A DNA stretch of 64,000 nucleotides, taken from assembly GCA_030615745.1 (NCBI GenBank), contig JAUWYR010000002.1:15522-79521 (forward strand), read 5' to 3'. Numbering within the stretch: position 1 is the first letter of the stretch; each line of letters starts with the position of its first letter. Source of the stretch: Candidatus Zixiibacteriota bacterium. GTDB lineage: Bacteria > Zixibacteria > MSB-5A5 > SM23-73-2. Below, piece after piece: positions 1,622 to 60,448 of the stretch. A program made the translations under genes and the position numbers. The notes under the pieces are model-generated. The model saw only the letters and a list, made by a program, of their open reading frames with translations. It had not been told where the DNA came from and did not search any database.

Positions 1622-3856
1622 TCAGCACACCTTCAAAACCACCAAAGTGAAATCATCCCAGAAAGTCGCTCCTCTGGAGAAGTTGTTTACCTCTTTGACT
1701 AAAATATTTTTAATCTCATCTGCTGTTTGATGGCGGGAGGCCTCAAGTAAATCCAAAAGCCTCCTTTCCCCGAACTGCTCTTCAGATTTATTGAATGCCT
1801 CGGTTAAGCCATCGGAATAAAAGACTAAAATATCTTCTGAATCCAAAAACTTCTCACCTTTCTCATAAGTAGCAAAAGCAAAGGCTCCTAAGATCAATCC
1901 CCCCTCTTTTAAAAACTCGATTTCACCGGATTTACGCAAAAGCACTGGATAGTTATGACCGGCATTGCAATAACAAAGACTTTTTTTCTGCGGGTCGAAT
2001 TCACCGTAAAACATAGTGGCGAACTTCTCGGTGGAGGTTGAGGAATAGATTAGCTGATTTACGTTAGATATTACAAGATTCGGAAGGGGCGAATTTTTCG
2101 CCTCAGCCCTTAAGGATGCGTGGAGCAGAGATACTAAAAGTGCCGCTGGGATCCCCTTTCCAGTGGCATCGGCTATTGCTATCCCAAATGATTCATCCCC
2201 AGTTTTTATGAAATCGTAATAGTCTCCACCAACCTGCCTGGCAGGCTGTATATATGCTGAGACCTCAAATCCCTTACCAGTTGGAAGGGTCTTTGGAAGA
2301 AGGGCAAGCTGAATCTGCCGGGCAACCAAAAGCTCCTCCTCTAATTTTTGCTTTTCTAAAGACTCCGCATAAAGCTTTGCATTGTCAATCGCCACAACAA
2401 GCTGATTAGCTAAGACATTCAACAAGGTCAAATCCTCATAGGTGAACCTGAAACGAGTAGCCTTCTGAGATAAGCCGATAAACCCAATAAGTTCTTCTTT
2501 CTGAGAAAGAGGAACCGCCAGATGCAATCCACCCTGGCCGAGCAGGCCCGGAAACAAAAGCTTACTCATGGGAGTATCATCTGTTTTTATCTCCAACTCA
2601 TCAATATAAACCGGATTTTTTTTACCTTTTAAAGAAAGCAAAAATTTATCATCCTTCTCAAAATAGAATCTCCCCTCCTCAGCAAAGAGGACAAACTTAC
2701 CTTCATTATCCTGATAAACACACAAAAAGACCTTTTCCACCAGCATATTCCTCTTCAAGGTATCAAATACCGTCTCCTTCAGCTGGTCGAAATCAAAAAT
2801 TGTAATAATCTTTCTGCTGAAAGTCTCCATCATATTTCGGTAGTCAGAGGTATCTCTGATAAACATTCTCTTTATGAAATTATCCAGCTGACTCATTATA
2901 GGTTGAAAGAAAACCAGCGCTAAAATCACATAACTTATCTCTAAAATCGGTGTGGGACGCCCTAAGAAACCCTGGACTGCTTTTCCCAACTGAACCACAA
3001 CCAAAAAATAAAGCCCGACTAAAAGACCCGAGGTCAAAGAATAGACCAAGCTTTGTCTGACCAAAAGCCTTATATCTAAAAACTGGTGTTTGATTATAGC
3101 CCAGGCAATAGAACTTCCTCCAACAACCAGTGCTGTGATTGTCAAAAAATATTTCAGGTTATCTGAGATTTTTATAGGGGTAAGAACCGGGATTATGAAA
3201 GCCAGAGCATAAAGCCCTGTAGCAGACCATATCCCCCGGACTAAAAATTTGACCTGACGCTTTAGCCTCTGAATTTTAACCTTTTTGTAACCGAGATAAA
3301 GAAAAAAGACTGCTAAAAAAAGGTAAATCAAATTGACAACCGAGAAGAACTGAAGATGAAAACTATACAAAACACCCATCAGGGTGGCAAAGATTTTAAC
3401 CACAAAAGCAAAGGGTTCTAAAAGCCATCCAAAAACAAAACCTGTTTTCCAAGATTCTAAAGATCTAACCCAGCTATCCGGATCATAAAAAATTAGCATA
3501 AGAAAGATATGGAAAATGTGAGGTAAAAATAAAAGCCATTTAACCTTTGGAAAATCAAAAAGAAACTTTTTCTTTTCAGGAAAAACAAAGGAGAAAAGCA
3601 AAAGAAATGGGAAAAAAAGCTCCCACAGGTAAAAGATATTGGTGTAGAAAATCGATCGGGATATCTCCGGGGAGATGTCTTTAGCAATTGTTCCTAAAGC
3701 TCCCAATAAAGGTCCTAACCCAGCAAAAAAAAGCATCAGGCTGGTTATCCTGTTGATTTGGGCTTTGGGGTTCTCTCTGAAAATTACAACTGCCAAAAAA
3801 AATAGAAAGATACCACCAACTAAATAAATTGCTGCGACAATGGTTGAAAGGTTCAA
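1622..3856 (-). CDS. Membrane 7TM sensor + GAF + SpoIIE/PP2C (RsbU-like) phosphatase
   Basis: N-terminal TM helices; VGGDYYD, DATGKG, YCNAGH and YSDGLTEA motifs. Confidence 0.9.
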   Translation of the reverse strand: MNLSTIVAAIYLVGGIFLFFLAVVIFRENPKAQINRITSLMLFFAGLGPLLGALGTIAKDISPEISRSIFYTNIFYLWELFFPFLLLFSFVFPEKKKFLFDFPKVKWLLFLPHIFHIFLMLIFYDPDSWVRSLESWKTGFVFGWLLEPFAFVVKIFATLMGVLYSFHLQFFSVVNLIYLFLAVFFLYLGYKKVKIQRLKRQVKFLVRGIWSATGLYALAFIIPVLTPIKISDNLKYFLTITALVVGGSSIAWAIIKHQFLDIRLLVRQSLVYSLTSGLLVGLYFLVVVQLGKAVQGFLGRPTPILEISYVILALVFFQPIMSQLDNFIKRMFIRDTSDYRNMMETFSRKIITIFDFDQLKETVFDTLKRNMLVEKVFLCVYQDNEGKFVLFAEEGRFYFEKDDKFLLSLKGKKNPVYIDELEIKTDDTPMSKLLFPGLLGQGGLHLAVPLSQKEELIGFIGLSQKATRFRFTYEDLTLLNVLANQLVVAIDNAKLYAESLEKQKLEEELLVARQIQLALLPKTLPTGKGFEVSAYIQPARQVGGDYYDFIKTGDESFGIAIADATGKGIPAALLVSLLHASLRAEAKNSPLPNLVISNVNQLIYSSTSTEKFATMFYGEFDPQKKSLCYCNAGHNYPVLLRKSGEIEFLKEGGLILGAFAFATYEKGEKFLDSEDILVFYSDGLTEAFNKSEEQFGERRLLDLLEASRHQTADEIKNILVKEVNNFSRGATFWDDFTLVVLKVC
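2533..2547 (+). repeat. 15-nt CCTGGCCGAGCAGGC element, in frame inside the phosphatase gene
   Basis: Matches 4 other copies; removal restores LFPGGLHL from LFPGLLGQGGLHL. Confidence 0.75.
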
Positions 3857-3868
3857 CTCAATCCACCC

Positions 3869-4297
3869 TTACTTTTTCAAGTATTTAACCATCTTGACAA
3901 TGGTGCCGCCTTCCGGCTGGAAAATAAAGTTGACTTTATCCATCAAGGATTTTAAAATGAAAACCCCCCTTCCAACTTTTTTTAAAATATTTTCACCCTC
4001 TACCGGTGAGCTCAAAGACTCTGGGTCAAACCCATCTCCCTGATCTTCGACTGTGATCACTATCTTTAATTTTTCGATTTTTAAATCTATTTTGACCTTC
4101 TTCCCCCTATCGTTTTTATTTCCATGAACAATCGCATTGGTCACCGCCTCAGTAACGGAGATAGCCACATCAGCCAACTGGCTTTGATCCAGCCCGAGCT
4201 TTTTTAATTTTCCCTCAACGAACTCATCAACATCCCTAAGATAATCCAAAGAGCTTGGAACAGAGATTTTATTTTTCCCTTTTACGATTTTTCCCAT
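3869..4297 (-). CDS. Anti-sigma factor Ser/Thr kinase (RsbW-like HATPase)
   Basis: EAVTNAIVHGN, DQGDGF and GRGVFI boxes. Confidence 0.9.
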   Translation of the reverse strand: MGKIVKGKNKISVPSSLDYLRDVDEFVEGKLKKLGLDQSQLADVAISVTEAVTNAIVHGNKNDRGKKVKIDLKIEKLKIVITVEDQGDGFDPESLSSPVEGENILKKVGRGVFILKSLMDKVNFIFQPEGGTIVKMVKYLKK

Positions 4298-4374
4298 TTC
4301 TTTTCCTAAAGAGAAAAGGTAGGCTTGTGACCTACCCCATCCAATCTTTTTTTTAAAAAATTTGCCAGATGAAA

Positions 4375-4713
4375 TTATTTGAAGCTCTCAATTGCCTTCT
4401 CCAAAGAGTCGAATCTTTCGAAAACAGTGAGCAACCTGGTTATTTCCAGAAGCTTCTCGATTTTCTCAGTTACGTTTGCAAGCTTGAGTTCCCCCTGATT
4501 GTTGCGTATGGTGGTTAAAGCGGAGATCAGAATTCCAAGTCCAGTGGAGTTCATCCAGTCCACTTTAGATAGATCGATTACTATCCTTTTTTTATTCTGA
4601 GAAATAAGATTACGAAGCTTATCGTGTAATTCGGTCGCATCCGGTCCGCCCATAATTTTCCCCTGAGGAGAGATCACCACCACACCTTTTTTCTCACTGA
4701 TAGTAAACTCCAT
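4375..4713 (-). CDS. STAS anti-sigma factor antagonist (RsbV-like); start reassigned to ATG 4713
   Basis: DLSKVDWMNSTGLG motif; AGGAGG RBS before MEFTISEKK. Confidence 0.9.
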   Translation of the reverse strand: MEFTISEKKGVVVISPQGKIMGGPDATELHDKLRNLISQNKKRIVIDLSKVDWMNSTGLGILISALTTIRNNQGELKLANVTEKIEKLLEITRLLTVFERFDSLEKAIESFK

Positions 4714-4836
4714 AAGAAATCCTCCTAAAATATGAACCTTTTTAAATTCTACGAAGGAAAAAAAATTGCGTTTCAACAAAAAAATAAAGCCACCACAGAT
4801 GACTTTTCGAATTTTGGGATAAAATATTTTGAACTC

Positions 4837-5253
4837 TTATTTGAACAAAGCTTTTATTTTACCCCAGGTGGTCAATTTTACATTCAGGGAGGAAACAGTT
4901 ATTTTTTGTCTTATTGTGCCAGAAAAAGCTTTAATCGGGGGGGTGGCTTTTTGCCCATTGACCTTCAAAACTATAATATCATCCTCTGACCATCCATCCT
5001 TTTTCTGAGTATCTGGGTCATCCTTTGGTATACATAGAGAATATTCGCCATCTTCTGTGGTGGTCTGGGCTACTAGATTATTATCTATATATGCGGTTAC
5101 TTCATATCCATCCTCAGCTGGCGCACCCCGGTAGTCTACTTCACCCCACAGACAACAAAAAGAGGACTTATGTTGAGCAAAAAGTGTCCCTGAAAAAAGA
5201 AAAAGAAGTATCAAACTTAAAATTGAAAGAACCTTTATTTTTCCCCCGCTCAA
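4837..5253 (-). CDS. Small secreted protein with C-terminal TWGKIK motif
   Basis: Signal-peptide-like N-terminus; ends LTTWGKIKALFK. Confidence 0.75.
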   Translation of the reverse strand: MSGGKIKVLSILSLILLFLFSGTLFAQHKSSFCCLWGEVDYRGAPAEDGYEVTAYIDNNLVAQTTTEDGEYSLCIPKDDPDTQKKDGWSEDDIIVLKVNGQKATPPIKAFSGTIRQKITVSSLNVKLTTWGKIKALFK

Positions 5254-5333
5254 ATTTGAACCCCTCCGCTATTTTCTCTTCATTTTATGTTTTTTCTCGG
5301 ATTTGTCAAGTAAAAAATTTAATTTTTTTTAAA

Positions 5334-5957
5334 TTAAATCTGGTTAATCAGGGCAAAGGAGAGATGTTCTAACTCCATTGCCATGTTCACTGTTCTTAAA
5401 AAGACTTGATCTGGAACTTTTATATTAGCTGGGGCGAAGTTTAATATAGTTCTTATACCTGCTTTGACAACCTGGTCTACAACTTTTTGGGCTTGGTCTG
5501 CTGGAACTGCTATTATCACCATCTCGATTTTACTCTCCTTCAATTCTTTGACCAAATCTTTCACATCCTTAATTATAATCCCCTTGTGATTTTTCCCTAT
5601 TTTCCTTTGGTCGTTATCAAATAAAAGCTTTATTAAAAATCCCTGTTTTGCAAATTCTTTGTATGATACTAAAGCGGAGCCCACATTTCCAACGCCGATC
5701 AAGGCGACCTTCCAGGTTTTGTCCAACCCAAGAATCGAGGCGATCTTTTCTTTCAACTCCAATACCTTATAACCTAACCCTCTTGTTCCAAAGCTTCCAA
5801 ATAAAGACAAATCTTTTCTTACCTGAGCCGGGGTGAGCTTTTCTATTTTTGCCAACTCTTTTGAAGAAACAGTAACGTATCCTTCTTTTTCCAATAAGCG
5901 GAGCACACGATAATATCTCGAAAGCCTCTTTACCGTGGATTCTGACACTTTTCTCAC
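5334..5957 (-). CDS. rex: Redox-sensing transcriptional repressor Rex
   Basis: RLSRY, QVRKDLS, GTRGLGY and GVGNVG motifs. Confidence 0.95.
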   Translation of the reverse strand: MRKVSESTVKRLSRYYRVLRLLEKEGYVTVSSKELAKIEKLTPAQVRKDLSLFGSFGTRGLGYKVLELKEKIASILGLDKTWKVALIGVGNVGSALVSYKEFAKQGFLIKLLFDNDQRKIGKNHKGIIIKDVKDLVKELKESKIEMVIIAVPADQAQKVVDQVVKAGIRTILNFAPANIKVPDQVFLRTVNMAMELEHLSFALINQI

Positions 5958-5979
5958 AAAAATTTATCCTTTCTTAACC

Positions 5980-5997
5980 TTGTGAACTCTTTCACAA
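5980..5997. promoter_or_regulatory. Rex operator TTGTGAA-CTCT-TTCACAA (probable autoregulation)
   Basis: Perfect match to the established TTGTGAA-N4-TTCACAA consensus, 22 nt upstream of the rex start. Confidence 0.9.
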
Positions 5998-6114
5998 TTA
6001 TGAAGGAAAAAGTTAAATTGTCAAGGGAAAAATGGCAGTATTTTACACTGAAGAGAAAAGATTACCAACAGATGAAATGGACTACAAAAGATTGTATCCA
6101 ACATTTGAGTTTCT

Positions 6115-6190
6115 GGAGTGTAAAGCTTCAGCTTTACCTTATGGAGAAATAATCTTTTTTATCATAGGGCAGGGCATTTAGCCCTGCCAC
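6115..6190. repeat. REP-like palindromes (GTAAAGCT-TC-AGCTTTAC; GGCAGGGC-ATTTA-GCCCTGCC)
   Basis: Two short stems; the first is related to 51638-51660. Confidence 0.65.
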
Positions 6191-6296
6191 AAATTATCTT
6201 TTGAAATTTTTTTATGAAACTTTCCTTTATCTTCTGAGTAAAACACAAATGAGAGGAAAACCTCACCTCTTTTTATAGCTGCATTCCTCCTTTTTC

Positions 6297-6328
6297 AAGG
6301 CTGCCTCGCTTTAAAAGGCAGCCTTTTG
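6297..6328 (+). terminator. Rho-independent terminator-like hairpin
   Basis: AAGGCTGCCT...AGGCAGCCTT followed by a short T run. Confidence 0.55.
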
Positions 6329-6412
6329 CAATTGACAAATTAGATTCTAAAGCGTAATCGGAAAAAAGACAAAAGTTAAAAACAGATTTTATAAAACAGG
6401 ATACCAGTTTTT

Positions 6413-6670
6413 TTAAAATATCTTCCCCACTACCCAGATTATAATAAAAACTGAAATCAAAGAGTTCAAGATAACCAACAAAGAATACTTGACATCCCTT
6501 TTGGATATATCCTTTTTGAAAGAAAGATTGGTCAGCAAAAAATTAAATCTTTTACCGGTTCTTTTAACAGATACTTTCTGCCAGCCTAAAAGGATTAGTT
6601 TTAAAATAAAAATAAATAACAAAAAAATAAGGGCTATCTTTAGCCCATCCACCCCGGATGATTGAAACAT
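6413..6670 (-). CDS. Small hypothetical 2-TM membrane protein
   Basis: 85-aa ORF with two hydrophobic stretches. Confidence 0.5.
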   Translation of the reverse strand: MFQSSGVDGLKIALIFLLFIFILKLILLGWQKVSVKRTGKRFNFLLTNLSFKKDISKRDVKYSLLVILNSLISVFIIIWVVGKIF

Positions 6671-6778
6671 AATTTTTGAACTAAACTTTCCAGAGTATAA
6701 AAACTGTAAACTAAAAAAACTCTGACTACTGCCTACCTCCTACAATATCTCTTTTCCCAAATCTCAGCTCTCGAATCT

Positions 6779-9211
6779 CTATTCTTCTTCAGCTTTCATA
6801 ACCCTGGCGATATCTACCACCTTATCCCCTTCATCTAAATTTATCAGCCTCACACCCTGAGTCGCTCTTCCAATCGCCTTAATCTGTTTAGCAGGTTGTC
6901 TGATTATCTTTCCCTTCTGAGTTATAATCAAAAGCTCATCCTCATCCTCAACCATCTTGATAGCAACAGCTTTTCCATTCCTTTTGGTTGTCCTTATGTT
7001 TATTATCCCCTTTCCCCCACGATTGGTTATTCTATAATCAGAGACATCGGTTCTTTTACCATAGCCGTTCTCAGTGATAACTAAGATTTTTGTATCTTTT
7101 TTAATGATCTCCATTCCAATAACAAAGTCCTTATCCGAAAGATTTATTCCTCTAACTCCATAAGCATTTCTTCCGGTGGGTCTGATTTTGATCTCAGGAA
7201 ATCTTATAGCAACCCCACCTGTTGTGGCTAAAAGTATATCATAGGTCCCATCAGTTATCGTCGCTTCAATCAACTGATCATCTTCAGGAAGATTTATTGC
7301 GATGATCCCTCCCTTTCGAGGATTGGAAAAAGCATCCAGCTTTGTCTTTTTTATCACTCCTTTTTTAGTTGCCATCACAACAAAACGCTTCTCATCGAAT
7401 TTATCCACCGGAACAAAAGCAGTTATGTTCTCATCTTTACCTAAATCCAAAAGGTTAACTATAGGCTTCCCTTTTGTCAATCTCCCCCCCTGTGGAATCT
7501 CATAAACCTTTAGCCAGTGGCATCTGCCTTTGGTAGTAAAGAAAAGTATATAATCGTGGGTGAAGGCGATAAACAGATGTTCAACAAAATCTGTTTCCTT
7601 GGTCCCAATCCCTATAACTCCCTTTCCACCTCTGGACTGACGCTTGTAAGCATCGACACCCAGCCTTTTTATATATCCCTGATGAGTGATGGTTATCACC
7701 ATATCCTCCTCAGCTATCAAATCCTCTAAGGTGAACTCCTCCTCCTCCTCTTTTATCTCAGTCCTTCTCGGGTCCGCATATTTTTTCTTTAACTCTAAAA
7801 GCTCCTCTTTTATAAGTTGCATCCTTTTGACTTTGCTTTCGAGAATCCCTTTAAGTTGAGCAATCAATTTTATAAGCTCTAAGTATTCATCCTCAACTTT
7901 TTTCCGCTCAAGCCCGGTAAGCCTCGAAAGCCTCATATCCAATATCGCCTGCGCCTGGATCTCAGTTAATTCGTAATTTTTTATAAGTCCCTTTTTAGCA
8001 TCATCGGGGGTTTTTGATCTTCTAATCAATTTTATTATCGCATCTAAATACTTTAAAGCGATTTTAAATCCCTCTAAGATGTGTGCCCGCTTCTCCGCTC
8101 TTTTTAATTCGAATTTCATCCTTCTTGTGATAACCTCATGGCGATGTTCCAAAAAGTGCGAAAGAAGCTGTTTTAAGGTCAAAATCTTTGGCTGACCATC
8201 AACCAGAGCTAAAAGTATTACCCCGAATGTGCTCTGCATTTGAGTTTGCTTGAAGAGCTGATTCAAAATCACCTCAGCCGGAGCATCCCTTTTTAACTCA
8301 ATCACAATCCTCATCCCTTCTCTGTCGGACTCATCCCTTAAATCAGAGATCCCTTCGATGACCTTATTGTTCACCAAACTTGCAATCCTTTCCAGAAGGT
8401 TGGATTTGTTGATCTGAAAAGGTATCTCTGTTATTACAATCGATTCCTTTCCAGATTTTTGCTTCTCTGCTTTTGCCCTTGCTCTTAAGATGATCCTTCC
8501 TCTTCCTGTCCTGTAAGCTTCTGTTATCCCCGAAGTGCCGTAGATTATTCCTCCGGTTGGAAAGTCAGGACCAGGAATAAAGTTTAAAAGGTCCTCATCC
8601 TCTGTTTCAGGCTCCTCTATTATGTTTACCAATGCATCTACAACTTCACCCAGATTATGGGGGGGAATGTTTGTAGCCATTCCAACAGCGATGCCGGAGG
8701 AACCATTGCATACCAAATTAGGGAACCTGGAGGGCAAAACCACTGGTTCTTCTCTGGTCTCATCGTAGTTGGGTTGAAAATCCACTGTATCCTTTTCTAA
8801 GTCAGAAAGGATCTCCGTAGCAAAGAATGAAATCCGTGCCTCAGTGTATCTCATAGCTGCCGGAGCATCTCCATCGATGGACCCGAAGTTTCCCTGCCCA
8901 TCCACCAAAGGATATCTTAAGTTGAAATCCTGAGCCATCCTCACTAAAGTGGGATAGACCACCTGTTCGCCATGGGGATGATAATTACCCGAGGTATCTC
9001 CGCAGATTTTAGCACACTTCCTGGGAGGTCTCTCAGGGGATAAACCCAAATCGTTCATCGCCACTAAAATCCTTCGCATCGATGGTTTTAAACCATCCCT
9101 CACGTCTGGCAATGCACGGGAAGTTATAACAGACATAGAGTAGTCTATATAGGAGGATTTCATCTCCTCCTCAATATAGACCGGAACGACTTTCTCTTTG
9201 TTTCCTAACAT
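6779..9211 (-). CDS. gyrA: DNA gyrase subunit A
   Basis: [24 protein letters not shown] and GyrA-box-like QSRGGKG. Confidence 0.98.
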
Positions 9212-9621
9212 TATTGTTGACCTTCAAATACCTTTATCTTCTCCCCTAAGCTCTTCTGCAAAAAAGAGGCAATTTTTATTACATTGATACCATCTTTTCT
9301 TTTGATTTCTACGTCAAAGCGACCTGTTGCCTCTTTGCTTTTATTAAATGCCCAATAAAGATTCCTCATAGATATTTTGGAAAATTTCCTTGCCTCTGCA
9401 TAAAATTTCCAAAAAGAATTTAGTATTCCAATACTTGAACGAGGAAGTCTTTCTTTTTTTAGGATAAGCAAACCTCTTAAGGAAAGTTCCAACGAGTGAT
9501 ACCCTGTGTATACAGCTAAACGAGCCAAGCCCACTTTTAGGCTTTCTTTTGAACCGTACAAATACTCTTTTGAAAGTTTAAAAAAATCTAATGCTTTGTA
9601 TTTTTTCTCTAAAAGACTCAT
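9211..9621 (-). CDS. HEPN-domain protein, apparently degenerate and without an adjacent MNT partner
   Basis: AVYTGYHSLELSLRGLL helix pattern; no R-x4-H/Y motif; stop overlaps gyrA ATG. Confidence 0.6.
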   Translation of the reverse strand: MSLLEKKYKALDFFKLSKEYLYGSKESLKVGLARLAVYTGYHSLELSLRGLLILKKERLPRSSIGILNSFWKFYAEARKFSKISMRNLYWAFNKSKEATGRFDVEIKRKDGINVIKIASFLQKSLGEKIKVFEGQQ

Positions 9622-9703
9622 ACTTGAGATCTTAAACGTTGTGTTTACTCAACTTTTAATTTAAAAAATTGTTAAATTATTTGTCCTAATAAACATACGC
9701 ATT

Positions 9704-9769: not shown

Positions 9770-9839
9770 CTTTAAATATTAAAAAAAGGGGTTAGCTCTT
9801 TGTTTTGAGTTCTTCTGTAATCCTTTATGGAAAAGCTGA

Positions 9840-26054: not shown

Positions 26055-26212
26055 GGATCGGGGTAAGGTACCCCGATCCAACAAGAATGGACAGATAAGT
26101 CTTTAAAGTTGGTTCGGGAATTGCCTGTCCGGCCAGGAAATTCCCGAACCTAAGATTCCTGCGGGAAATCCCCCGCCTTTGGCGGGGTCTTGACGACAAT
26201 TCCCGCAGAAAC
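26055..26212. repeat. Cluster of nested REP-like palindromes
   Basis: GGATCGGGGTA..TACCCCGATCC; GGTTCGGGAATT[15-nt element 26123-26137]AAATTCCCGAACC; CTGCGGGAA..[CCCCGCCTTTGGCGGGG]..TTCCCGCAG. Confidence 0.8.
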
Positions 26213-28164: not shown

Positions 28165-28450
28165 TGTCATTGCGAGCGTTAGCGAAGCAATCTCATCAAA
28201 CTCAAAAGATTGCTTCGGGACTTTCGCCCCCCGCAATGACAGGCTAAAATATGCGGAAGCATCAAGAGATAATGTTATTTTGGAAACATTTCACCAGAGC
28301 CATAAAGGATCCCTGGTCGGGCAGGCAATGTGGGTTAAATAAGCCCCACCTTATGGGCAAGGTGGGGATACGATGATATTTTGCGTAGCGGAGGGTTTAT
28401 CCCTCCGATGCAGAGCCATAAAGGCTCCCTGGCCGGACAGGCTGCTACGC
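28165..28450. repeat. Repeat cluster: RPE-like element (28165-28241), CAAGAG insertion (28251-28270), two 15-nt elements (28312-28326, 28428-28442) and GTAG-type REPs
   Basis: GTCATTGCGAG..GAAGCAATCT..AGATTGCTTC..CGCAATGAC; GTAGCGGAGGG-TTTAT-CCCTCCG. Confidence 0.8.
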
Positions 28451-28470
28451 GATTAATTAGATTAGCTTAA

Positions 28471-29154
28471 TTGTTTCACGTGAAACAAACTTATCTCTTG
28501 ATGGGTACCCATCTCAAAAAATTTCAAAAAGCCTGTAAATCTCTTGAAATAGAGCTGACCGAGGAGCATTTAGATAAATTCAAACTATATTCAAAAGAAC
28601 TTGCAAAGTGGAATGAAAAAATTAATCTTATCTCAAGAAAATCTGATACACCAAAAGATATTTATAGACATTTCCTCGATTCCCTTTTAATACTCAATGC
28701 TATAAAGATTCCTTTTCAAACGAATTTATTAGATTTAGGCTCAGGAGCAGGCTTTCCAGGCCTCCCTTTAAAAATCTTAAGAAAAGATATATTTTTGATC
28801 CTCTTAGAATCAAAAAGGAAAAAGGCTTTTTTTCTCGAACATATAGTTGACATCTTAAACCTAAAAAATACAAATGTGATAAACCAGAGAGCAGAAGAGT
28901 TGAGCTTAAATTCAGATTATATTGAAAAATATGATTTGACAACAGCAAGATTATTAGGGAAATTAGATAAGATAACCAAAATTGCTCACTCTTTTTTAAA
29001 AGTCGGAGGACTTTTAGTCTGCTATAAAGGAAAATCAGTTGAAGAGGAGTTAAAAAAACTCTCAAAAGACTTTGAGCTTGAAAAGAAATTCCTTTACGAA
29101 AACTCTGTGTTTGGCTTGCAAAGAAATTTGATTATTTTAAAAAAAATCAAATAA
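28471..29154 (+). CDS. rsmG: 16S rRNA m7G527 methyltransferase (start 28471 or 28501)
   Basis: RHFLDSL and DLGSGAGFPG motifs; synteny. Confidence 0.95.
   Translation: MFHVKQTYLLMGTHLKKFQKACKSLEIELTEEHLDKFKLYSKELAKWNEKINLISRKSDTPKDIYRHFLDSLLILNAIKIPFQTNLLDLGSGAGFPGLPLKILRKDIFLILLESKRKKAFFLEHIVDILNLKNTNVINQRAEELSLNSDYIEKYDLTTARLLGKLDKITKIAHSFLKVGGLLVCYKGKSVEEELKKLSKDFELEKKFLYENSVFGLQRNLIILKKIK
28472..28487. promoter_or_regulatory. parS centromere-like site
   Basis: Perfect TGTTTCACGTGAAACA about 0.7 kb upstream of parAB. Confidence 0.95.
28493..28512 (-). repeat. CAAGAG micro-insertion ATGGGTACCCATCAAGAGAT at the rsmG 5' end
   Basis: Same AT-hairpin-AT-CAAGAG-AT architecture in reverse orientation. 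Confidence 0.8.
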
Positions 29155-53451: not shown

Positions 53452-53465
53452 TTAAATCTTTTACC

Positions 53466-54938: not shown

Positions 54939-55047
54939 TAATATTACCAGAGTCTCATTTTGATTTTTGGTCAGTTTCTGTGCAAAAAAAAGGAATTCCC
55001 AACAGAAAAAGCAGATTACGAAAATGTGAGGGATGCAATAAAAATTT

Positions 55048-55614
55048 TTAGAAATTATAATTTATTAAAAGATTAATTCTTTTATCGTAAGGTTGTAAAG
55101 CTAACCCCACCTCCAAATCCTTCATCTTTATCTTATCGAAATTGTAAAGGTGAGCGTCCACATAAGCATCAAACATGCTTATAAAAATTATTCCTGATAC
55201 GACCCATAAATATAGGTTTCTTGTGTCACGATGATACTGATAGAGGTCAAACTGGTAGAGGGAATCTACAAAGTTTTTGGCGTTTTTAAAATTTTTTTCG
55301 GATTTGTCAGTTTTTATCCATTCGTCCAAGGCTAAGATGATATAGCTTGTCTCAAATCCGAAGGCTACTATCGCTTTTAGATATTTTTCGTTATAAAACT
55401 GCCCCCATCCAGGAAAAGTAACTGACCTTAATAATGCTCCCATTGGTGATTTATGCTTTAAAGTGCTATCACAGGACGCAAAAAAGATTTTTTTTTCATT
55501 TTTGGCAAAGACCTTTTGAAAAGAAAAGAGGCTTAAAATTATAAGTGTGTTCAGAAAAAAAATTATCATTTTTTTCATTTCTTCAAAAGATAGATTCTTA
55601 TCCCAAAAAAACAA
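55048..55614 (-). CDS. DUF5683-like membrane protein
   Basis: KSP..FPGWGQFYN and DAYVDAHL motifs. Confidence 0.8.
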   Translation of the reverse strand: MFFWDKNLSFEEMKKMIIFFLNTLIILSLFSFQKVFAKNEKKIFFASCDSTLKHKSPMGALLRSVTFPGWGQFYNEKYLKAIVAFGFETSYIILALDEWIKTDKSEKNFKNAKNFVDSLYQFDLYQYHRDTRNLYLWVVSGIIFISMFDAYVDAHLYNFDKIKMKDLEVGLALQPYDKRINLLINYNF

Positions 55615-55736
55615 GCGATTTTTATCCGGTTCATTTCGTCATAAATGGAAAACCCTTCACTCTAAGAATATAACTGAAAGCAACGTATCTGGTAAAAATT
55701 ATAAAATGATAATGCGGGCTTCCAGCCCTCAAAAGA

Positions 55737-55816
55737 GAGATTGCTTCGTCCCGATTTCATCGGAACTCGCAATGACGTCTTCCTTTGTCATTGCGAGCCG
55801 AAGGCGTGGCAATCTC
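55737..55816. repeat. RPE-like palindromic element
   Basis: GAGATTGCTTCG..CTCGCAATGAC..GTCATTGCGAGCCGAAGGCGTGGCAATCTC. Confidence 0.8.
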
Positions 55817-55896
55817 TGACGGAAATAAGAGTTTTTCAGACCAATCTAAAAAAACTTGACTTCACTTTGACCAATTCGTATATATTATTTGGAGTT

Positions 55897-56652
55897 ATGA
55901 AGTTAGAGATTTCTGAGAAACTGCAATCGAGGCTGGTTCCTGAGACAAAAGTTGTGGTTTTAACAGGAGCAGGAATTTCAGCTGAGAGTGGAGTCCCCAC
56001 TTTCAGGGGTAAAGAGGGCTTGTGGAAGAAGTTCCGGCCAGAGGAGCTGGCTACATTTGAGGCTTTTATGGCTAATCCCAAACTTGTGTGGGAATGGTAT
56101 CAATACAGAAGAAAACTCTTGGAGCAGGTTAAGCCCAATTTGGGGCATAAAGCTTTAGTCGATTTTCAAAAGTTTTTTAAAGGTTTCACATTGATAACTC
56201 AGAACGTTGATGGTCTTCACCAAAAAGCTGGCTCTTTTGATATAGTCGAACTTCATGGTAATATAAAAAGGAACAGATGCATAAGTTGCGGAAAGATATT
56301 TGAAAGCTTAAAGAATTTAAAAGAGAAAAACCCTCCTTTATGTGATTGCGGAGGTAGAATTCGTCCGGATGTAGTGTGGTTCGGAGAGATGCTTCCTCAG
56401 GATGCTTTACAAAAGGCTTTTTTTGTATCATCAAACTGCGAGTTGTTCTTCTCAATTGGGACCTCTGCTGTGGTTCATCCTGCTGCTTCCCTTCCAATTA
56501 TGGCTAAAAGAGGTGGCGCATATCTTATTGAGGTTAATATCGAGCCTACTGAGCTTTCCTTTATCACAGATGAGAAGTTATTGGGTAAAGCAGGAGAAAT
56601 CCTGCCTGAGATTGTGAAGCTCTTCAGAAAAAATTCGCAAAAAGATATGTAG
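55897..56652 (+). CDS. cobB: NAD-dependent deacylase (sirtuin); start reassigned to ATG 55897
   Basis: TGAGISAESG, TQNVDGLH, ELHG and RPDVVWFGE motifs. Confidence 0.93.
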   Translation: MKLEISEKLQSRLVPETKVVVLTGAGISAESGVPTFRGKEGLWKKFRPEELATFEAFMANPKLVWEWYQYRRKLLEQVKPNLGHKALVDFQKFFKGFTLITQNVDGLHQKAGSFDIVELHGNIKRNRCISCGKIFESLKNLKEKNPPLCDCGGRIRPDVVWFGEMLPQDALQKAFFVSSNCELFFSIGTSAVVHPAASLPIMAKRGGAYLIEVNIEPTELSFITDEKLLGKAGEILPEIVKLFRKNSQKDM

Positions 56653-56672
56653 GTCGAATTTCTGAATTCGAC
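56649..56672 (+). repeat. GTAG-type REP overlapping the cobB stop
   Basis: GTAGGTCGAATT-TCTG-AATTCGAC. Confidence 0.7.
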
Positions 56673-56680
56673 TAAAAGTT

Positions 56681-57565
56681 ATGAAGGCAAAAGATGTAAA
56701 AGAAAAAATAGATGAAGCTTACCAGATTTTAAGATCGTGTAATCTTTGTGGTAACCTCTGTGGTGTTAATAGATTGAATGGTCAAAAAGGAAGATGTAAA
56801 GCTGCAGGTGAGCTTATGGTCTCAAGCCAAAACATCCACTTCGGGGAGGAACCACCTATTTCAGGAAAAAGGGGCTCTGGTAATATATTTTTCACCTGGT
56901 GCAGTCTGAGATGTCTTTATTGTCAGAATTATCCCATAAGCCAGCTCGGAGTGGGAAGGGTTGTAACTTCACAAGAGTTGGCAGAGATGATGATCTATCT
57001 TGAGAAAAAAGGATGCCATAATGTGAATTTAGTGACTCCCACACATTTTATCCCCCAGATAATAGAGGGTGTATCAAAAGCAAAGGATATGGGTTTTCAT
57101 CTGCCTTTGGTCTATAACACCTCAGGGTATGAGACCAAATCCGCCCTAAAACTCTTAGAGGGGATAATCGATATATATCTTGTGGATATGAGATACTCAG
57201 ATAATGGGATAGCAAATACTCTATCCCAGGCAAAAAATTATACCAGGGTCAACCGGGATGCGGTCAAAACAATGTATTCACAGGTCGGGAACTTAAAAAT
57301 AAAAGATGGTCTGGCTACCCAGGGAGTGATAATAAGGCATCTTGTGCTTCCTAATAAGCTTGCCGGTTCCAAAAAGACTTTTGAGTTCATCCAGAAAAAG
57401 GTCTCAGAAAAAGCCTGGGTAAGCCTGATGATGCAGTATTTTCCTGCTTATAAGGCACTAAATTTCAGACTTTTAAAAAGAAAAACCACAAAAAAGGAAT
57501 ATCAAAAAGTTTTTGAGGAGTTCTTTGAAGTTGGTCTTTCCAATGGGTGGATTCAGCTTAATTGA
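56681..57565 (+). CDS. Radical SAM protein, PflX-like
   Basis: HFGEEPPISG, CSLRCLYCQN and IIRHLVLP motifs. Confidence 0.88.
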   Translation: MKAKDVKEKIDEAYQILRSCNLCGNLCGVNRLNGQKGRCKAAGELMVSSQNIHFGEEPPISGKRGSGNIFFTWCSLRCLYCQNYPISQLGVGRVVTSQELAEMMIYLEKKGCHNVNLVTPTHFIPQIIEGVSKAKDMGFHLPLVYNTSGYETKSALKLLEGIIDIYLVDMRYSDNGIANTLSQAKNYTRVNRDAVKTMYSQVGNLKIKDGLATQGVIIRHLVLPNKLAGSKKTFEFIQKKVSEKAWVSLMMQYFPAYKALNFRLLKRKTTKKEYQKVFEEFFEVGLSNGWIQLN

Positions 57566-57566
57566 G

Positions 57567-59561
57567 GTGAGTAAAGTGCGTAAAATTTCTCTAACCTTAA
57601 TTTTCTTTTTTCTTTTTACCTGCGCCTATTACAATACCTTCTACCATGCAGAAAAGCATTTTAAAAATGCTCGAAAAATTGACCGGAGCTCCGAATCGGA
57701 CGCACCTAATCCTAGGGCATTCGGAGAGTATGACAATGCGATAAAGAAAGCCTCCAAGATTTTGACCTTTCATTCTAAAAGCAAATGGGTGGATGACGCC
57801 TTGTTTATGATCGGACAATGCTTTTATTATAAAGGTGAATACCTTAAAGCAGAAAGAAAATTCAAAGAGCTTATAGTTGGATTTCCCAAAAGTGATTTGG
57901 TAGAGGATAGCCACTATTTTTTAGGACTATGTTATCAAAAATTGGAGGATCCACTCAAAGCGAAAAAACAGTTCAGCCAGATCTTGGCTGATCCCCAGAA
58001 AAAAAAGCATAAAATGGATGCTTTGTTTATGCTGGGAGAGGTCTTTTTTCAAGATGGTGAATATGATAGTGCGATTGTTCAATATCAAAGGCTTTTAAAA
58101 GAGGGTGCTGAGAAAAACATTTCGGTTAAAGCCCAGTTCAGAATAGGTGAATGTTGTTTTTTAAACCACGAATATGAAAAGGCAAAAGATGCTTTTTCTG
58201 AAATTGAAAAACTTGATCCAGACCAGGAGAGCTTATTTAAATCCAAATTCAAGATAGGGGAATGTTTTTATCTTTTAAAAAATTATCAGAAAGGCTTGGA
58301 TGAATTCCTAAATCTTTCTAAAAAGGAGGAATACTATAAATATCTTGCGGATGTAAAATTAAAGATTGCCCAGGGTTATCTTTTTTTGGACAAAATCGAG
58401 GAAGCTACAGATGAATATAAAAAAATAACAGTTGAGTATCCAAAAACAGATTGGTCAGCTGAGGCTTTTTTTCAACTTGGGCTTATCTACCAAGAAAAAA
58501 TTTACGACCTTTCCAAAGCTAAGGAGATGTTCGATCTTTGTAGCAAAGAAAAACAGGGGACCACTTTAGCTAAAAGGGCTTTGGAAAAATCTGCTGACAT
58601 CGCCAAGTTGGAGGAGTATCAGGCTGAGCTTTCAAAGGAGGAAACTGAGAGGTCTGTTAAGACTTTATTTCTTTTAGCTGAGGTTTATTTAACTCAGATG
58701 AACCAGCCCGATTCAGCCTTAGCTGAGTATCTTCTTTTGGCTGAAAAATATCCAGAATCAGAGTACGCCCCTAAATCACTTTATGCAGCTGGCTGGATTT
58801 TTTTGCATTTGAAAAATGATACAACAGAGGCTCAAAAACTTCACAGAAGAATTTTAAAAGAATATCCGAAATCCGATTATGCCAAGTTAGCTTCACAATT
58901 ATCGGAGTCTTTTCCTGATACCTTAGAATATCCAGAAGATATCTATTTAGAAGCTGAGCGCCTTCTTTTTGAAGAAGGGAAAATTGACTCTGCTTTAAGT
59001 TTGCTTAAAAAGATTACCGAAAAATATCCTGAAAGCGCCTATGCAGCTAAATCCCGGTATACTTTAGCCTGGGTAATTGAGAATTTTAAGAATACTGGTG
59101 ATAGCAGTGCTATTTTCGCCTATCAGGAGGTAATAGAGAAAAATCCAGACTCGGAATATGCTGAGTTTGCCAAAATCAGGCTGGGCTTAAAAAAACAAAA
59201 AAAAGAACCCGAAGCACCACCGGCTACTCAACCCGATACTACAGATACAACAGAAGCGGAAGCTCCCTCAGCTTTTGAGGCAGGGATACCCTTTGCTCCC
59301 ACTCCGATAAAAAAGGAGCCTTTCGTCTATCCTGAGGAGATGGTAGATTTAAACATACGGACGAAAGTGAGGTTCAAAATCAAAATTGAGATGGATGGGA
59401 AGGTAAGCGATACTCAAATTTTGAATCCCTCAGGTTATTATGATATAGACGATGCTGCAACACAGGCTGCTCTTTCTACCATGTTCAGCCCGGATAGCAT
59501 AGAGGTTATCCTTTTACCGGGATGGTTTTTGTATGATGTGGAGGTGAAACCTCCAGAATAA
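57567..59561 (+). CDS. TPR-rich exported protein with a C-terminal TonB_C-like domain
   Basis: Many TPRs; Pro/Thr linker; YPE..V....I..DGKV......SG...ID.AA pattern; start approximate. Confidence 0.8.
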   Translation: MSKVRKISLTLIFFFLFTCAYYNTFYHAEKHFKNARKIDRSSESDAPNPRAFGEYDNAIKKASKILTFHSKSKWVDDALFMIGQCFYYKGEYLKAERKFKELIVGFPKSDLVEDSHYFLGLCYQKLEDPLKAKKQFSQILADPQKKKHKMDALFMLGEVFFQDGEYDSAIVQYQRLLKEGAEKNISVKAQFRIGECCFLNHEYEKAKDAFSEIEKLDPDQESLFKSKFKIGECFYLLKNYQKGLDEFLNLSKKEEYYKYLADVKLKIAQGYLFLDKIEEATDEYKKITVEYPKTDWSAEAFFQLGLIYQEKIYDLSKAKEMFDLCSKEKQGTTLAKRALEKSADIAKLEEYQAELSKEETERSVKTLFLLAEVYLTQMNQPDSALAEYLLLAEKYPESEYAPKSLYAAGWIFLHLKNDTTEAQKLHRRILKEYPKSDYAKLASQLSESFPDTLEYPEDIYLEAERLLFEEGKIDSALSLLKKITEKYPESAYAAKSRYTLAWVIENFKNTGDSSAIFAYQEVIEKNPDSEYAEFAKIRLGLKKQKKEPEAPPATQPDTTDTTEAEAPSAFEAGIPFAPTPIKKEPFVYPEEMVDLNIRTKVRFKIKIEMDGKVSDTQILNPSGYYDIDDAATQAALSTMFSPDSIEVILLPGWFLYDVEVKPPE

Positions 59562-59620
59562 AAAGATCACCTTTTGAACCAGACTGATTAAGATATTTTT
59601 GCGTATCCATTCATACGAAA

Positions 59621-60448
59621 ATGGTTTTTCAAAAAAAAGTTAAGTTAATCTCATCTGAAAAGCTCACCAGTGATCTCTTCAGATTGAGGTTTTTTTGTCC
59701 AGAGGTCGCAAAGGGTGCAAAGCCTGGAAATTTCGCTCATATCCGGATAAGCCAGAATACTACTCCCCTTTTGAGGAGGGCTTTCAGTATTTTTGATGTC
59801 GATTTGAAAAAGAAGACATTCGATATTCTTTTCAAAGTTGTAGGGTTGGGAACAAAGATTTTGTCTGAGAAAAAAAAGGGGGAGAGTTTAGATGTTTTAG
59901 GACCTTTAGGAAACAGTTTTCTTATTTCATCAAAAGAGCAAAATTTAGTTCTGGTAGCTGGTGGAATGGGAATCGCACCTCTTATGTTTTTAGCTTCTTA
60001 TCTGGTTAAAAGTGAAAAAATCAAGCGGGAAAAAATTAGCTTTTTATATGGGGAAAAGACAAAAAACAACTTTGTTTGTTTGGGTCAGCTTAAAAAGTTA
60101 GGGGTAAAAACGGTTCTCACAACAGAGGATGGCACAAAAGGTTTTAAAGGTAAAGTGACAGATCTTTTTTTAAAGCGAAGAATTAAACTTGGAATTGGGA
60201 AAAATTGTTTTATCTATTCTTGCGGTCCACAAAAGATGATGAAAAAGATGTCTGAGCTCTCAAAAAAATATGATCTTTTCTGTCAGCTTTCTTTGGAAAC
60301 TCATATGCCCTGCGGTTTAGGAGCTTGCTTCGGATGTGTGGTTAAATATATAAAAAATGATACCACTCCCCTGGCCGGGCAGGCAACTTATAAAAGAATC
60401 TGTGTGGATGGACCGATATTTGATGCAAGAGAGGTTGAGCTTGATTGA
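59621..60448 (+). CDS. pyrK: Dihydroorotate dehydrogenase electron transfer subunit
   Basis: RRAFS, GGMGIAP and CGLGACFGC..CVDGP motifs. Confidence 0.93.
   Translation: MVFQKKVKLISSEKLTSDLFRLRFFCPEVAKGAKPGNFAHIRISQNTTPLLRRAFSIFDVDLKKKTFDILFKVVGLGTKILSEKKKGESLDVLGPLGNSFLISSKEQNLVLVAGGMGIAPLMFLASYLVKSEKIKREKISFLYGEKTKNNFVCLGQLKKLGVKTVLTTEDGTKGFKGKVTDLFLKRRIKLGIGKNCFIYSCGPQKMMKKMSELSKKYDLFCQLSLETHMPCGLGACFGCVVKYIKNDTTPLAGQATYKRICVDGPIFDAREVELD
60370..60384 (+). repeat. 15-nt CCTGGCCGGGCAGGC element, in frame in pyrK
   Basis: Removal turns TTPLAGQATYKR into TTPTYKR. Confidence 0.8.

Follow-up and report, generated by a model that had tools for sequence, protein, structure and literature searches.

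A discrete 15-nucleotide insert, dispersed through a Zixibacteria genome and recurring in distant bacterial phyla

The 15-nt sequence described here is a discrete indel. It has been inserted repeatedly and recently, its insertions leave the target unduplicated, its copies fall into subfamilies, and more than one phylum contains it. We consider it probable that these indels represent a non-autonomous, ultra-short insertion element, with the 15-nt unit YCCTGGCCGGRCAGG, which would be copied from existing copies and placed 5' of a C without duplicating the target.

The unit and its copies

The window, by which we mean the whole 64,000-nt stretch of DNA analysed, contains exactly five matches to CCTGGYCGRRCAGGC at up to two mismatches, where 0.16 would be expected by chance (100 shuffles), and none of the 100 shuffled windows contained five. 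The places and contexts given for these copies in the original prediction, which included a REP loop, a phosphatase gene and the Fe-S cysteines of pyrK, were all confirmed. The first copy (2533..2547, plus strand, CCTGGCCGAGCAGGC, one mismatch; 2532-2546 in the register preferred here) lies antisense and in-frame within the gene for a membrane-anchored, RsbU-like GAF and SpoIIE (PP2C-type) phosphatase of 744 residues (1622..3856, minus strand; Pfam SpoIIE 3.8e-48, GAF_3/GAF_2/GAF at 1e-6), to which it contributes the extra residues LLGQG. The second (26123..26137, minus strand, preferred unit 26124-26138), a member of the T/A subfamily discussed below that reads tCCTGGCCGGACAGGc on the minus strand, tops a 12-bp REP-like stem, GGTTCGGGAATT...AATTCCCGAACC; folded as DNA, the site reaches -16.5 kcal/mol (z -5.2), and in this structure the element caps the REP stem with 4 bp. 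The third (28312..28326, plus strand, CCTGGTCGGGCAGGC) lies at a chimeric junction between two repeat families, GCCATAAAGGNTC on its left and AAYGTGGG on its right. Elsewhere in the genome the 11-mer on its left is followed ten times by TGCTACGC, nine times by CTCTACGC and six times by the element, while the 11-mer on its right has one further occurrence directly after the element.

The fourth copy (28428..28442, plus strand, CCTGGCCGGACAGGC) sits in the 3' arm of a hairpin, at the site GCAGAGCC-ATAAA-GGCTC^TGC followed by TAC, which is a GTAG tag on the other strand, and it is the single A10 copy with a preceding C. Its excision in silico yields GCAGAGCCATAAAGGCTCTGCTAC, for which seven empty paralogs exist genome-wide (up to three mismatches over 28 nt), all with C at the ambiguous base; removal of these 15 nt thus restores the hairpin, as had been suggested. 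The fifth (60370..60384, plus strand, preferred unit 60369-60383) is an exact consensus copy, in-frame in pyrK (59621..60448, plus strand), which encodes the electron-transfer subunit of dihydroorotate dehydrogenase and has pyrD directly downstream. It adds PLAGQ to PyrK between the third and fourth Fe-S cysteines, after the CxxC pair and ahead of the last cysteine of the cluster.

The genome-wide count proposed along with the original prediction gave 140 near-exact copies in 2.28 Mb (85 exact, 37 with one mismatch and 18 with two) and 103 matches to the degenerate pattern, and the most frequent 13-mer of the genome belongs to the element. In this genome ten composition-matched shuffled 15-mers gave no exact matches and 0-3 at up to two mismatches, and the reversed sequence gave none. 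The fixed length of 15 nt first proposed stands, while its boundaries are better set one base further left; as far as the sequences indicate, the true unit is YCCTGGCCGGRCAGG, mostly in the form CCCTGGCCGGGCAGG. It reads as an imperfect palindrome with CCTG and CAGG ends, symmetric at 12 of 14 positions. Folded as isolated DNA it reaches -2.4 kcal/mol (z 0.3 and -0.7), a hairpin that is not significantly stable, which weakens a model of structure-specific recognition.

Such palindromic ends, together with the missing target duplication, are what would remain if a larger cut-and-paste element with CCTG...CAGG termini had left its two tips behind as a 15-nt footprint on excision. We think this very improbable, because the left half, CCTGGCCG, occurs 111 times with just three occurrences outside full units, which means that the two ends of a longer element are not seen apart; the subfamily markers at both ends are linked, and tandem and nested copies fit insertion of the unit itself more easily. 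On the same half-site evidence, no larger parent element was found.

Empty sites and polymorphism

The fixed length is most apparent at sites that lack the insert. For 82 of the 140 copies there is a paralogous empty site shorter by exactly 15 nt, in agreement with the frame-preserving element originally envisaged; the pairs span at least ten different hairpin-repeat families, and no target duplication was seen in these comparisons. Within any one repeat family, however, spread may reflect amplification of repeat and insert together, or gene conversion, rather than independent insertion. Protein-coding genes provide a second line of evidence. The ortholog alignments that had been suggested for PyrK and the phosphatase revealed exactly five extra residues in each, and the same was found for MltG/YceG, a metallophosphatase and RsmE, making five housekeeping genes. 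All 41 genomes searched have a pyrK ortholog, and 29 of 29 orthologs compared are shorter, that of the same-genus genome G001 by exactly five residues and the other 28 by at least five. The phosphatase has its five-residue gap in all five orthologs examined, including that of G001 (79% amino acid identity), and YceG, the metallophosphatase and RsmE have an exact five-residue gap in every ortholog examined. At the DNA level the alignment to G001 has a 15-nt gap, which is single in YceG, the metallophosphatase and PyrK and split as 12+3 in the RsbU-like gene. A copy in a DEAD-helicase gene, with two mismatches, has no clean five-residue insert relative to orthologs, and GatA of genome G294 was left out of the clean inserts, the alignment around its copy being ambiguous (2+1 gaps).

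Presence and absence also vary among close relatives. A metagenome contig (L327) carries a pyrK allele identical at 234 of 243 positions (96.3%) that lacks exactly the 15 nt of the fifth copy; this was the one close relative used, six other loci (paralogs or orthologs at 35-39% identity) having been left out. The comparison of strains draws partly on Logan contigs, from which the presence of a variant can be read but not its absence, and leaves out the copies at 551, 13397 and 18904 of L112 (at contig ends or uncovered in four runs); within it, the contig from run X6 that bridges the copy at C41:34613 omits 11+4 = 15 nt there, the pieces from X2 and X4 across the same copy have 15 gaps each, and the copy at C41:30468 is kept in X3 with no gaps. 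Exact copies number 85 in this genome against one in G001.

These observations bear on two rival accounts. According to the first, the 15-mer would have entered a few REP loops long ago and spread since then by amplification or recombination of the REPs (gene conversion, slippage), with no insertion activity of its own. The majority of copies do lie in REP-like families, at least eight chimeric junctions between repeat families attest to recombination at the element, and GTAG REP families with short and long loop variants are known from a published account (PMC3733652). Against this stand the bare 15-nt insertions in five non-repeat housekeeping genes, an insertion in a unique terminator-like hairpin that is polymorphic among strains, the 96%-identical pyrK allele without the insert, which comes close to a de novo insertion without flanking repeat homology, the presence of the element in at least ten unrelated repeat families, and copies in AT-rich Patescibacteria with no REP nearby; we therefore grant this account only a small share of the probability. 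The second account, that a fixed oligonucleotide was added at hairpins during library preparation or assembly, takes its force from the fact that all genomes concerned are metagenome-assembled. We regard it as next to impossible, since an independent study recovers the same copy in place (X3, record 10, no gaps), the copies have subfamilies, mutations and nesting, the genomes come from many projects and assemblers, and the reversed-sequence control gives 0-1 everywhere.

Register, landing sites and the origin of new copies

The base preceding the unit (-1) and position 10 are linked, being C and G in 119 of the 140 copies, T and A in 16, and other combinations in five. Empty sites corresponding to T-type copies carry C in four independent contexts, as does the X6 allele, and hence the T came in with the element. 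In genomes G063 and G065 the two A10 copies whose flanks were read (of four A10 matches) lack the T, and the T/A linkage is therefore a lineage marker. Comparison of the copies supports the idea that new ones are probably templated on existing ones. A guide-base model, in which T(-1)/A10 was a target-guide pairing or a compensatory hairpin pair (YCC/GGR), was dropped in view of the C of the empty sites, the A10 copies elsewhere without T and a fold that ignores the pair. For IS200/IS605-type single-strand transposition one would expect insertion 3' of a fixed short target without duplication; here no duplication is seen and the insertion point lies just 5' of a constant C, with upstream bases that are pyrimidine-rich and form no fixed tetranucleotide.

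Hairpins are preferred as landing sites: 39% of copies lie between perfect arms of at least 5 bp, against 4.7% of 5000 random positions. Genes are depleted, with 32 of 140 copies under an ORF of at least 120 codons as against 85% of random positions. Two copies are self-nested (C3:10945 and C56:4592), a tandem triple occupies C15:17082-17126, and other genomes contain tandem doublets. The copies are divided between the strands (71 plus, 68 minus) and do not follow local GC skew, whether over 5, 10 or 20 kb, so that the replication-strand signature of IS200/IS605-type elements is missing, although in a draft genome without a mapped origin this is a weak test.

The identity of the sequence across phyla (100%), its position on top of REP stems, to which it adds a 4-bp GC cap, and its frequent occurrence downstream of genes, for example 13 dockerin-tail genes, could all be read as signs of a functional motif, a binding or processing site (for a nucleoid protein or a nuclease, or as a terminator-strengthening RNA hairpin cap) that selection keeps identical while useful copies accumulate. 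This strikes us as distinctly improbable. Selection leaves the arrival of an exact 15-nt block unexplained, as the copies are indels and not convergences by point mutation; in-frame copies are found inside enzymes in both orientations and several frames; nesting and tandems are hard to reconcile with it; and presence or absence varies among close strains.

Under the insertion reading that we prefer, new copies would arise from existing copies and would be placed immediately 5' of a C, usually after one or two pyrimidines, with no duplication of the target site. The preferred targets would be hairpin-extruding DNA, typically the 3' loop edge or the 3' arm of REP-like palindromes, and further targets would be the central part of the element itself, giving nested copies, and its own 3' junction, giving tandems. 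The rare insertions in genes would persist as five-residue surface insertions, surviving because the unit is 15 nt long and free of stop codons in all six frames. A sequence-specific enzyme that works on single-stranded or hairpin DNA presumably mobilises the element in trans, and the 15-nt identity among copies may also support secondary recombination, producing chimeric repeat junctions.

Distribution, mobilisation and known systems

The element is confined neither to this genome nor to the Zixibacteria phylum. The 15-mer is present in 27 of 285 other Zixibacteria genomes, with up to 22 copies, and a Verrucomicrobia MAG and four of five Patescibacteria MAGs contain 10-33 copies per 0.6-3.1 Mb, the fifth (G289) having one; the Patescibacteria carriers belong to several classes. 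The reversed sequence gave no matches in the Verrucomicrobia and Patescibacteria set and 0-1 across all genomes checked. In these MAGs a C again stands before the element, copies are commonly in-frame within genes, essential ones among them, and in AT-rich Patescibacteria copies lie in contexts and coding regions without a surrounding REP. A search of the published literature found no paper carrying the 15-mer or its complement, and for palindromic repeats in Zixibacteria it returned only papers whose titles and opening abstract lines dealt with other subjects.

With the 15-mer multi-copy in phyla as distant as Zixibacteria, Patescibacteria and Verrucomicrobia, whatever spreads it must be widely shared or widely transferred. 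A bolder proposal, which we offer tentatively and think somewhat doubtful, is that CCCTGGCCGGGCAGG is a pan-bacterial 15-nt mobile element, which conserved machinery would copy from a template and paste 5' of C in single-stranded or hairpin DNA, keeping it letter-identical across Zixibacteria, several Patescibacteria classes and Verrucomicrobia, and steadily lengthening essential proteins of small-genome bacteria by five-residue loops. A sequence-specific ssDNA nuclease/ligase and a templated-insertion enzyme are two possibilities for such machinery. It counts against the insertion reading that no enzyme partner was found among the RAYT and small GIY-YIG genes tested. This genome has three Y1 (RAYT-like) genes, none with a copy less than 7 kb away; of 41 relatives, 39 have Y1_Tnp, with or without the element; and Y1_Tnp has no match in the element-rich Patescibacteria G286 (10 copies) and G288 (18 copies), MAGs that may be incomplete; RAYT was rejected as a universal partner on these grounds. 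Most of the 41 relatives contain small GIY-YIG genes (an estimate and not a genome-by-genome tally, UvrC giving every genome a GIY-YIG match), including the element-free G004, G005 and G007, and a copy lies within 1.5 kb at two of 13 such loci, so that near-ubiquity and poor adjacency leave an Ssn-like nuclease unsupported as partner. One small GIY-YIG gene in this genome is flanked by its own GTCATnCTGAGC hairpin repeats. When the 293 ORFs lying no more than 600 nt from a copy were compared all against all, none stood out as an enzyme candidate; the only neighbours that recurred were ordinary paralogs, IS transposases and 13 ORFs for dockerin-tail secreted proteins. A machinery common to this element and the CAAGAG family, at which the original prediction hinted, is not supported by the distribution of one CAAGAG-type 13-mer over 41 genomes: there are 52 copies here and none in G006, which has 22 copies of the 15-mer, or in G002, and the joint bloom of both families is therefore seen only in this genome.

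Given its multi-copy insertion and the identical 15-mer in distant bacteria, the element seems to rank among the smallest mobile DNA elements yet observed; we know of no described mobile repeat as short as 15 nt. The known size limit for mobile-element behaviour would thereby be lowered to 15 nt, for an element whose anatomy is given exactly, in its unit, register, lack of duplication, subfamilies, nesting and tandems. The spreading agent can now be sought directly, by phylogenetic profiling in which gene content is set against copy number. Enzymes repeatedly gain five residues through the element, among them PyrK, MltG, RsmE, RsmA and aminoacyl-tRNA synthetases; it also generates recombination junctions between repeats, and its copies are handy strain markers in metagenomes.

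Several known systems have analogous features. The GC clusters of yeast mitochondria are short, GC-rich mobile palindromes, scattered like the element through an AT-rich genome and with in-frame copies in a protein gene, but they are longer (30-60 nt) and organellar, and some classes have target duplications. MITEs have terminal inverted repeats and a target-site duplication and derive from a full-length IS; here there is no target duplication and half-sites hardly occur apart from full units. Rickettsia palindromic elements (RPE) are about ten times longer than the 15-nt element and are restricted to one genus, whereas a copy of the element contributes only five residues, and in Zixibacteria most copies are extragenic; the likeness lies in in-frame insertion into conserved genes, tolerated as extra peptide segments. 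RPE are described as selfish repeats inserted in-frame in functional conserved genes (PMC3733652).

REP and REPIN sequences, GTAG- and CGTC-tagged REPs among them, go with RAYT (TnpA-REP) transposases (PMC3733652, PMC8266576, PMC3116915). By definition they are imperfect palindromes of 20-40 nt with a conserved GTAG or CGTC tag at one end, and their cognate RAYT (Y1 HUH) gene co-occurs with the repeats and has them on its flanks. They share with the element the form of small GC-rich repeats in hairpin-forming DNA, with occasional in-frame intragenic copies. However, the element has 15 nt, a 4-bp stem, no GTAG or CGTC tag and no stable hairpin alone; it does not lie beside RAYT genes and is present in genomes without a Y1_Tnp match; and it is an insert within REPs and not a REP. 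This genome has GTAG-tagged REPs as well as three RAYT-like genes, and its REPs are the main landing sites of the element. The NTS/SRM hairpin repeats, associated with Ssn (GIY-YIG) single-strand nucleases, are about 30 nt long with a 20-bp palindrome and likewise comprise hundreds of copies of a short conserved motif across distant phyla (PMC11893778). Such motifs flank the ssnA-type GIY-YIG gene and co-occur with it. The partner expected for the element would be of this type, a dedicated nuclease specific for a sequence in ssDNA, but the element is not enriched beside small GIY-YIG genes and these are equally present in relatives without it.

The small dispersed repeats (SDR) of heterocyst-forming cyanobacteria are, like the element, very short, high-copy, dispersed, non-coding units that land in other repeats and in copies of their own kind and vary in presence and absence among relatives. 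Elhai and colleagues are said to have described them, in 2008, with units of 21-27 nt, as against 15 nt here, and two papers cite that work (PMC3116915, PMC2884548). The element belongs to another phylum and its sequence is presumably unrelated; it differs further in its identical unit in several phyla, and in its documented N^C register, its lack of duplication and its in-frame insertions in genes.

A precise 15-nt unit and its empty sites

The original prediction had proposed a genome-wide count of the GC-rich 15-mer, and this count gives 140 copies in the source genome (2.28 Mb, 74 contigs, 38.6% GC), of which 85 are identical to CCTGGCCGGGCAGGC, 37 carry one mismatch and 18 carry two. A degenerate pattern of the 15-mer has 103 matches, and the most frequent 13-mer of the genome, with 87 occurrences, is the element core. 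Ten composition-matched shuffled 15-mers produced no exact and between zero and three near matches in the same genome, and the reversed 15-mer produced none. The window is AT-rich (35-40% GC), as had been claimed, and its five copies lie exactly where they had been placed, at 2533, 26123, 28312, 28428 and 60370, against an expectation of 0.16 for the degenerate pattern.

To recognise sites without the unit, we fused the left and right 14-nt flanks of each copy and looked for the product in the genome, allowing up to three mismatches. At least one paralogous empty site was found for 82 of the 140 copies, spread over at least ten different hairpin-repeat families; examples, with the junction marked by a caret, are GCAACCTTC^AGGTTGC, GGGAGACCAC^RAGGGTCTCCC, GCCATAAAGGCTC^TGCTAC, GAGGGATAAACCCTC^YGCTAC, CTCYACTCC^TGACGC, GGATGTTATC^ATCC and GGTCCCC^TGACC. 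Most of the remaining 58 copies likewise lie in such families, with more variable stems. No target duplication was seen in the empty-site comparison, and the sole ambiguity of the unit boundary is one base, because a C both precedes the unit and ends it. A precise unit, added without duplication, is established, and these comparisons argue that the 15-mer is a discrete 15-nt insertion.

Position 10 of the unit is linked to the base in front of it, the combinations, with that base first, being C/G in 119 copies, T/A in 16, T/G in two, and C/A, A/T and G/G in one each, the last of which is an overlap artefact at a palindromic site. Base pairing as a reading of the T/A linkage was dropped, given that empty sites have C and that copies with A at position 10 occur without the T in G063 and G065, two other Zixibacteria. 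In four independent contexts, the empty counterparts of T-type copies read C at that base; the counts are 13 of 13 for a nested copy, 4 of 4 for contigs C25/C54 and 3 of 3 for C41:40403, and some CCTT[T/C]AGG families are polymorphic there. An empty allele from public sequencing run X6, ACATT-CA-GTAAC, again has C, and in G063 and G065, which have four A10 matches between them, G and C precede the two whose flanks were read. Because these empty sequences have C and A10 copies elsewhere lack the T, the T is part of the element, and the unit is therefore YCCTGGCCGGRCAGG, inserted 5' of C. In this register the base that follows the unit is C in 135 of 140 copies and the preceding base is T in 81, C in 39, A in 16 and G in four; the junction 5' of C is established. 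The two linked changes occur as a pair in at least nine different contexts, and hence the copies descend from template copies.

Copies within genes

Genes hold far fewer copies than expected: a stop-free frame of at least 120 codons covers 32 of 140 copies, compared with 85% of 3000 random positions, and several of the 32 are upstream of the real start. The unit is open in all six reading frames (PGRAG, LAGQ, WPGR, ACPAR, PARP, LPGQ), and the coding copies of the source genome use several frames and both orientations. By Pfam, the host genes encode a SpoIIE/GAF phosphatase (window 2533), PyrK (window 60370), YceG/MltG, a calcineurin-like metallophosphatase, RsmE, a DEAD helicase (C41:1405-4167) and transposases of three genes, of the IS256/Mutator, rve and rve_3 types.

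Five-residue gaps had been predicted in orthologs of PyrK and the phosphatase, and they are present. PyrK is exactly five residues longer than its same-genus ortholog and at least five longer than all 28 others aligned, and an exact five-residue gap occurs in all orthologs examined of the phosphatase, YceG and the metallophosphatase (five genomes each) and of RsmE (four genomes; the same-genus relative, G001, has no RsmE match). In DNA, the gaps against G001 sum to 15 nt, as a single gap in YceG, the metallophosphatase and pyrK and as 12+3 in the phosphatase. An empty pyrK allele is provided by a metagenome contig (L327), which is 96.3% identical (234/243) to the 3' end of the gene with exactly the 15 nt absent, its junction reading GATACCATTT|CAACTTAT where the source genome has GATACCACTC[unit]CAACTTAT. 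The alignments argue that the coding copies are true, recent insertions. The helicase copy, with two mismatches, is not a clean insert: relative to three orthologs the source genome has 19 extra residues and G001 has 13, and the insertion may be compound or older.

Of the nine differences that separate the filled from the empty pyrK allele, two are no more than 4 nt from the left junction (ACTC against ATTT; window 60360-60369), which could be chance or a change associated with the insertion. The extra helicase residues of both genomes directly follow the DEAD domain, in a region that includes the two-mismatch 15-mer. The IS256/Mutator-type transposase gene is present in three copies (C9:1-588, C11:1-471 and C35:11306-11788), each containing two oppositely oriented 15-mers, in frame and about 318 bp apart; rve-type transposase genes with copies are located at C34:64749-65372 and C37/C42:1-585.

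Landing sites and strain variation

A preference for hairpin-prone DNA is established: 39% of copies sit directly between perfectly pairing arms of at least 5 bp, compared with 4.7% of random positions, and many others occupy the 3' edge of larger loops or the 3' arm. Window copy 26123 caps a 12-bp stem. The unit alone folds no better than shuffled sequence. Copies are nested in reverse-oriented copies at C3:10945 and C56:4592, and a head-to-tail triple occurs at C15:17082-17126. At least eight copies, including window copy 28312, have the left half of one repeat family on one side and the right half of a different family on the other, and these chimeric junctions are most readily explained by secondary recombination between copies.

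In G063 (L138, L146) and in G247 (L121), a further Zixibacteria genome, some copies have a partial repeat of their last 8 nt behind them (..GGGCAGGC-GGGCAGGC) or an incomplete first half in front, which resembles the outcome of slippage; in the source genome, GGGCAGGC is found 26 times outside full units. A dockerin-like C-terminal double repeat (GDVNGDG..INL.DVIYLANYLLKGGP.P) is found in 13 of 293 ORFs within 600 nt of a copy in that genome, for example at C41:13870-14325, C17:39980-40450 and C62:12312-16454, and hairpins composed of REP and insert often stand after such secreted-protein genes.

Close relatives of this organism are present in public runs from ten studies, and four runs have at least half of the sampled words in common with it, one of these being the probable source. 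Logan contigs, which reveal the presence of a variant and not its absence, were taken from four runs of four studies, excluding the probable source, and aligned to a 20-kb stretch (L112, C41:21500-41499) with five copies. At C41:34613, a bridging contig of X6 lacks 11+4 = 15 nt at the copy, and pieces from X2 and X4 that extend across this site each have 15 gaps somewhere along their length. X3 has no gaps over C41:30468; at the remaining three copies contigs end or coverage is poor. It is established that insertion events are recent. Elsewhere in this stretch (L112 4125-6968, C41:25624-28467), joined contigs of X2, X4 and X6 skip 2842 nt, with 20 other letters there in X6; this 2.8-kb segment is strain-specific.

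Distribution, machinery and known systems

Over a set of 41 relatives, counts of the exact 15-mer are 85 in the source genome, one in the same-genus genome G001, four to five in the same family and zero in most, with 22 in G006, a 65% complete genome of another family. Across the phylum it is found in 27 of 285 genomes (reversed control 0-1), and multi-copy genomes are scattered over five Zixibacteria families (e.g., G065 with 18, G063 with 10 and G247 with six). A one-genome-per-species scan with the unit, two bases before and one after matched at least 106 stretches, where we estimate about 17 by chance, assuming uniform composition. The 80 matches listed include 30 Patescibacteria-type MAGs (Saccharibacteria, Kaiser-, Colwell-, Paceibacteria, Staskawicz-, Terrybacteria and unclassified), 14 Zixibacteria, eight Verrucomicrobia-type and two Planctomycetes DG_23; the rest are singles, some in high-GC actinobacteria, which may be due to chance. 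The flanks of many matches have 18-45% GC.

Exact copies number 18 in a Saccharibacteria genome (G288, 0.6 Mb), 15 in a Colwellbacteria genome (G285, 0.7 Mb), 10 in another of Patescibacteria (G286, 0.6 Mb) and 33 in a Verrucomicrobia genome (G287, 3.1 Mb), the reversed control being zero in each, and C precedes the unit in all but one context read. The identity of the 15-mer across phyla is established. In places a 7-nt direct repeat with TC at its end separates one unit from the next, which makes a 22-nt period within heptamer arrays; heptamers seen are AAAAATC, AAATATC, AGGTGTC and AGGKTTC (Colwellbacteria L171, L207; Verrucomicrobia L186, L187). In five further Patescibacteria genomes the majority of copies are in-frame within genes, including GatA and RsmA (PDB matches) and, judging from sequence motifs, what we take to be IleRS, LeuRS, TsaD and RarA; the RsmA has a clean five-residue gap relative to B. 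subtilis KsgA. One gene, reading ...GQI[TI]F-PGRAG-KSGK.SYFRYNTLDLNPVGASD..., has the identical 15-mer at one and the same place in a Saccharibacteria MAG (L307, G290) and a Kaiserbacteria MAG (L313, G291) with diverged flanking codons, reflecting either a hot spot or homogenisation.

Mobility of this kind would call for an activity that is specific for the sequence and works in trans on single-stranded or hairpin DNA. The original suggestion that such machinery is common to the CAAGAG family, a second mini-repeat family of the source genome, is unsupported: one CAAGAG-type 13-mer occurs 52 times there, twice in G001 and never in G006 or G002 (another Zixibacteria), so that both families bloom together only in the source genome. 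The CAAGAG family itself comprises variable small units, often tandem or nested, in which a short GC hairpin precedes TCAAGAGA, as in TGC-GGAA-GCA-TCAAGAGA (window 28250-28520 and genome-wide); TCAAGAGA is present at 339 sites, and the top 13-mers occur 52, 33 and 25 times.

RAYT was rejected as the universal partner: 39 of 41 relatives, with and without the element, have it, no 15-mer copies adjoin RAYT genes, and two element-rich Patescibacteria genomes gave no RAYT match. Small GIY-YIG nucleases found no support as partners either; they appear to occur in most of the 41 relatives, including some that lack the element, and have a copy nearby at only two of 13 loci. Recurrent neighbours of copies are confined to dockerin-tail proteins and IS genes, and searches found neither a replication-strand bias of copies nor a larger parent element. 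A small nuclease gene of the GIY-YIG (Ssn-like) type lies outside the window at C69:67915-68133 and contains an in-frame TAG. With GTCATnCTGAGC...GAAGnATC hairpin repeats on either side, it resembles an NTS/Ssn-type pair, here in Zixibacteria; a related 13-mer, TGTCATTGCGAGC, has 29 occurrences.

No paper containing the 15-mer or its complement was found in the literature searched. The closest described systems include REP/REPIN-RAYT (PMC3733652, PMC8266576), Rickettsia palindromic elements (PMC3733652) and NTS/Ssn (PMC11893778). Those defining features of REPs, MITEs and SRMs that could be tested are not found in the 15-mer. Cyanobacterial small dispersed repeats (SDR) and yeast mitochondrial GC clusters are also among the closest systems, and the SDR concept fits the 15-mer in everything save size.
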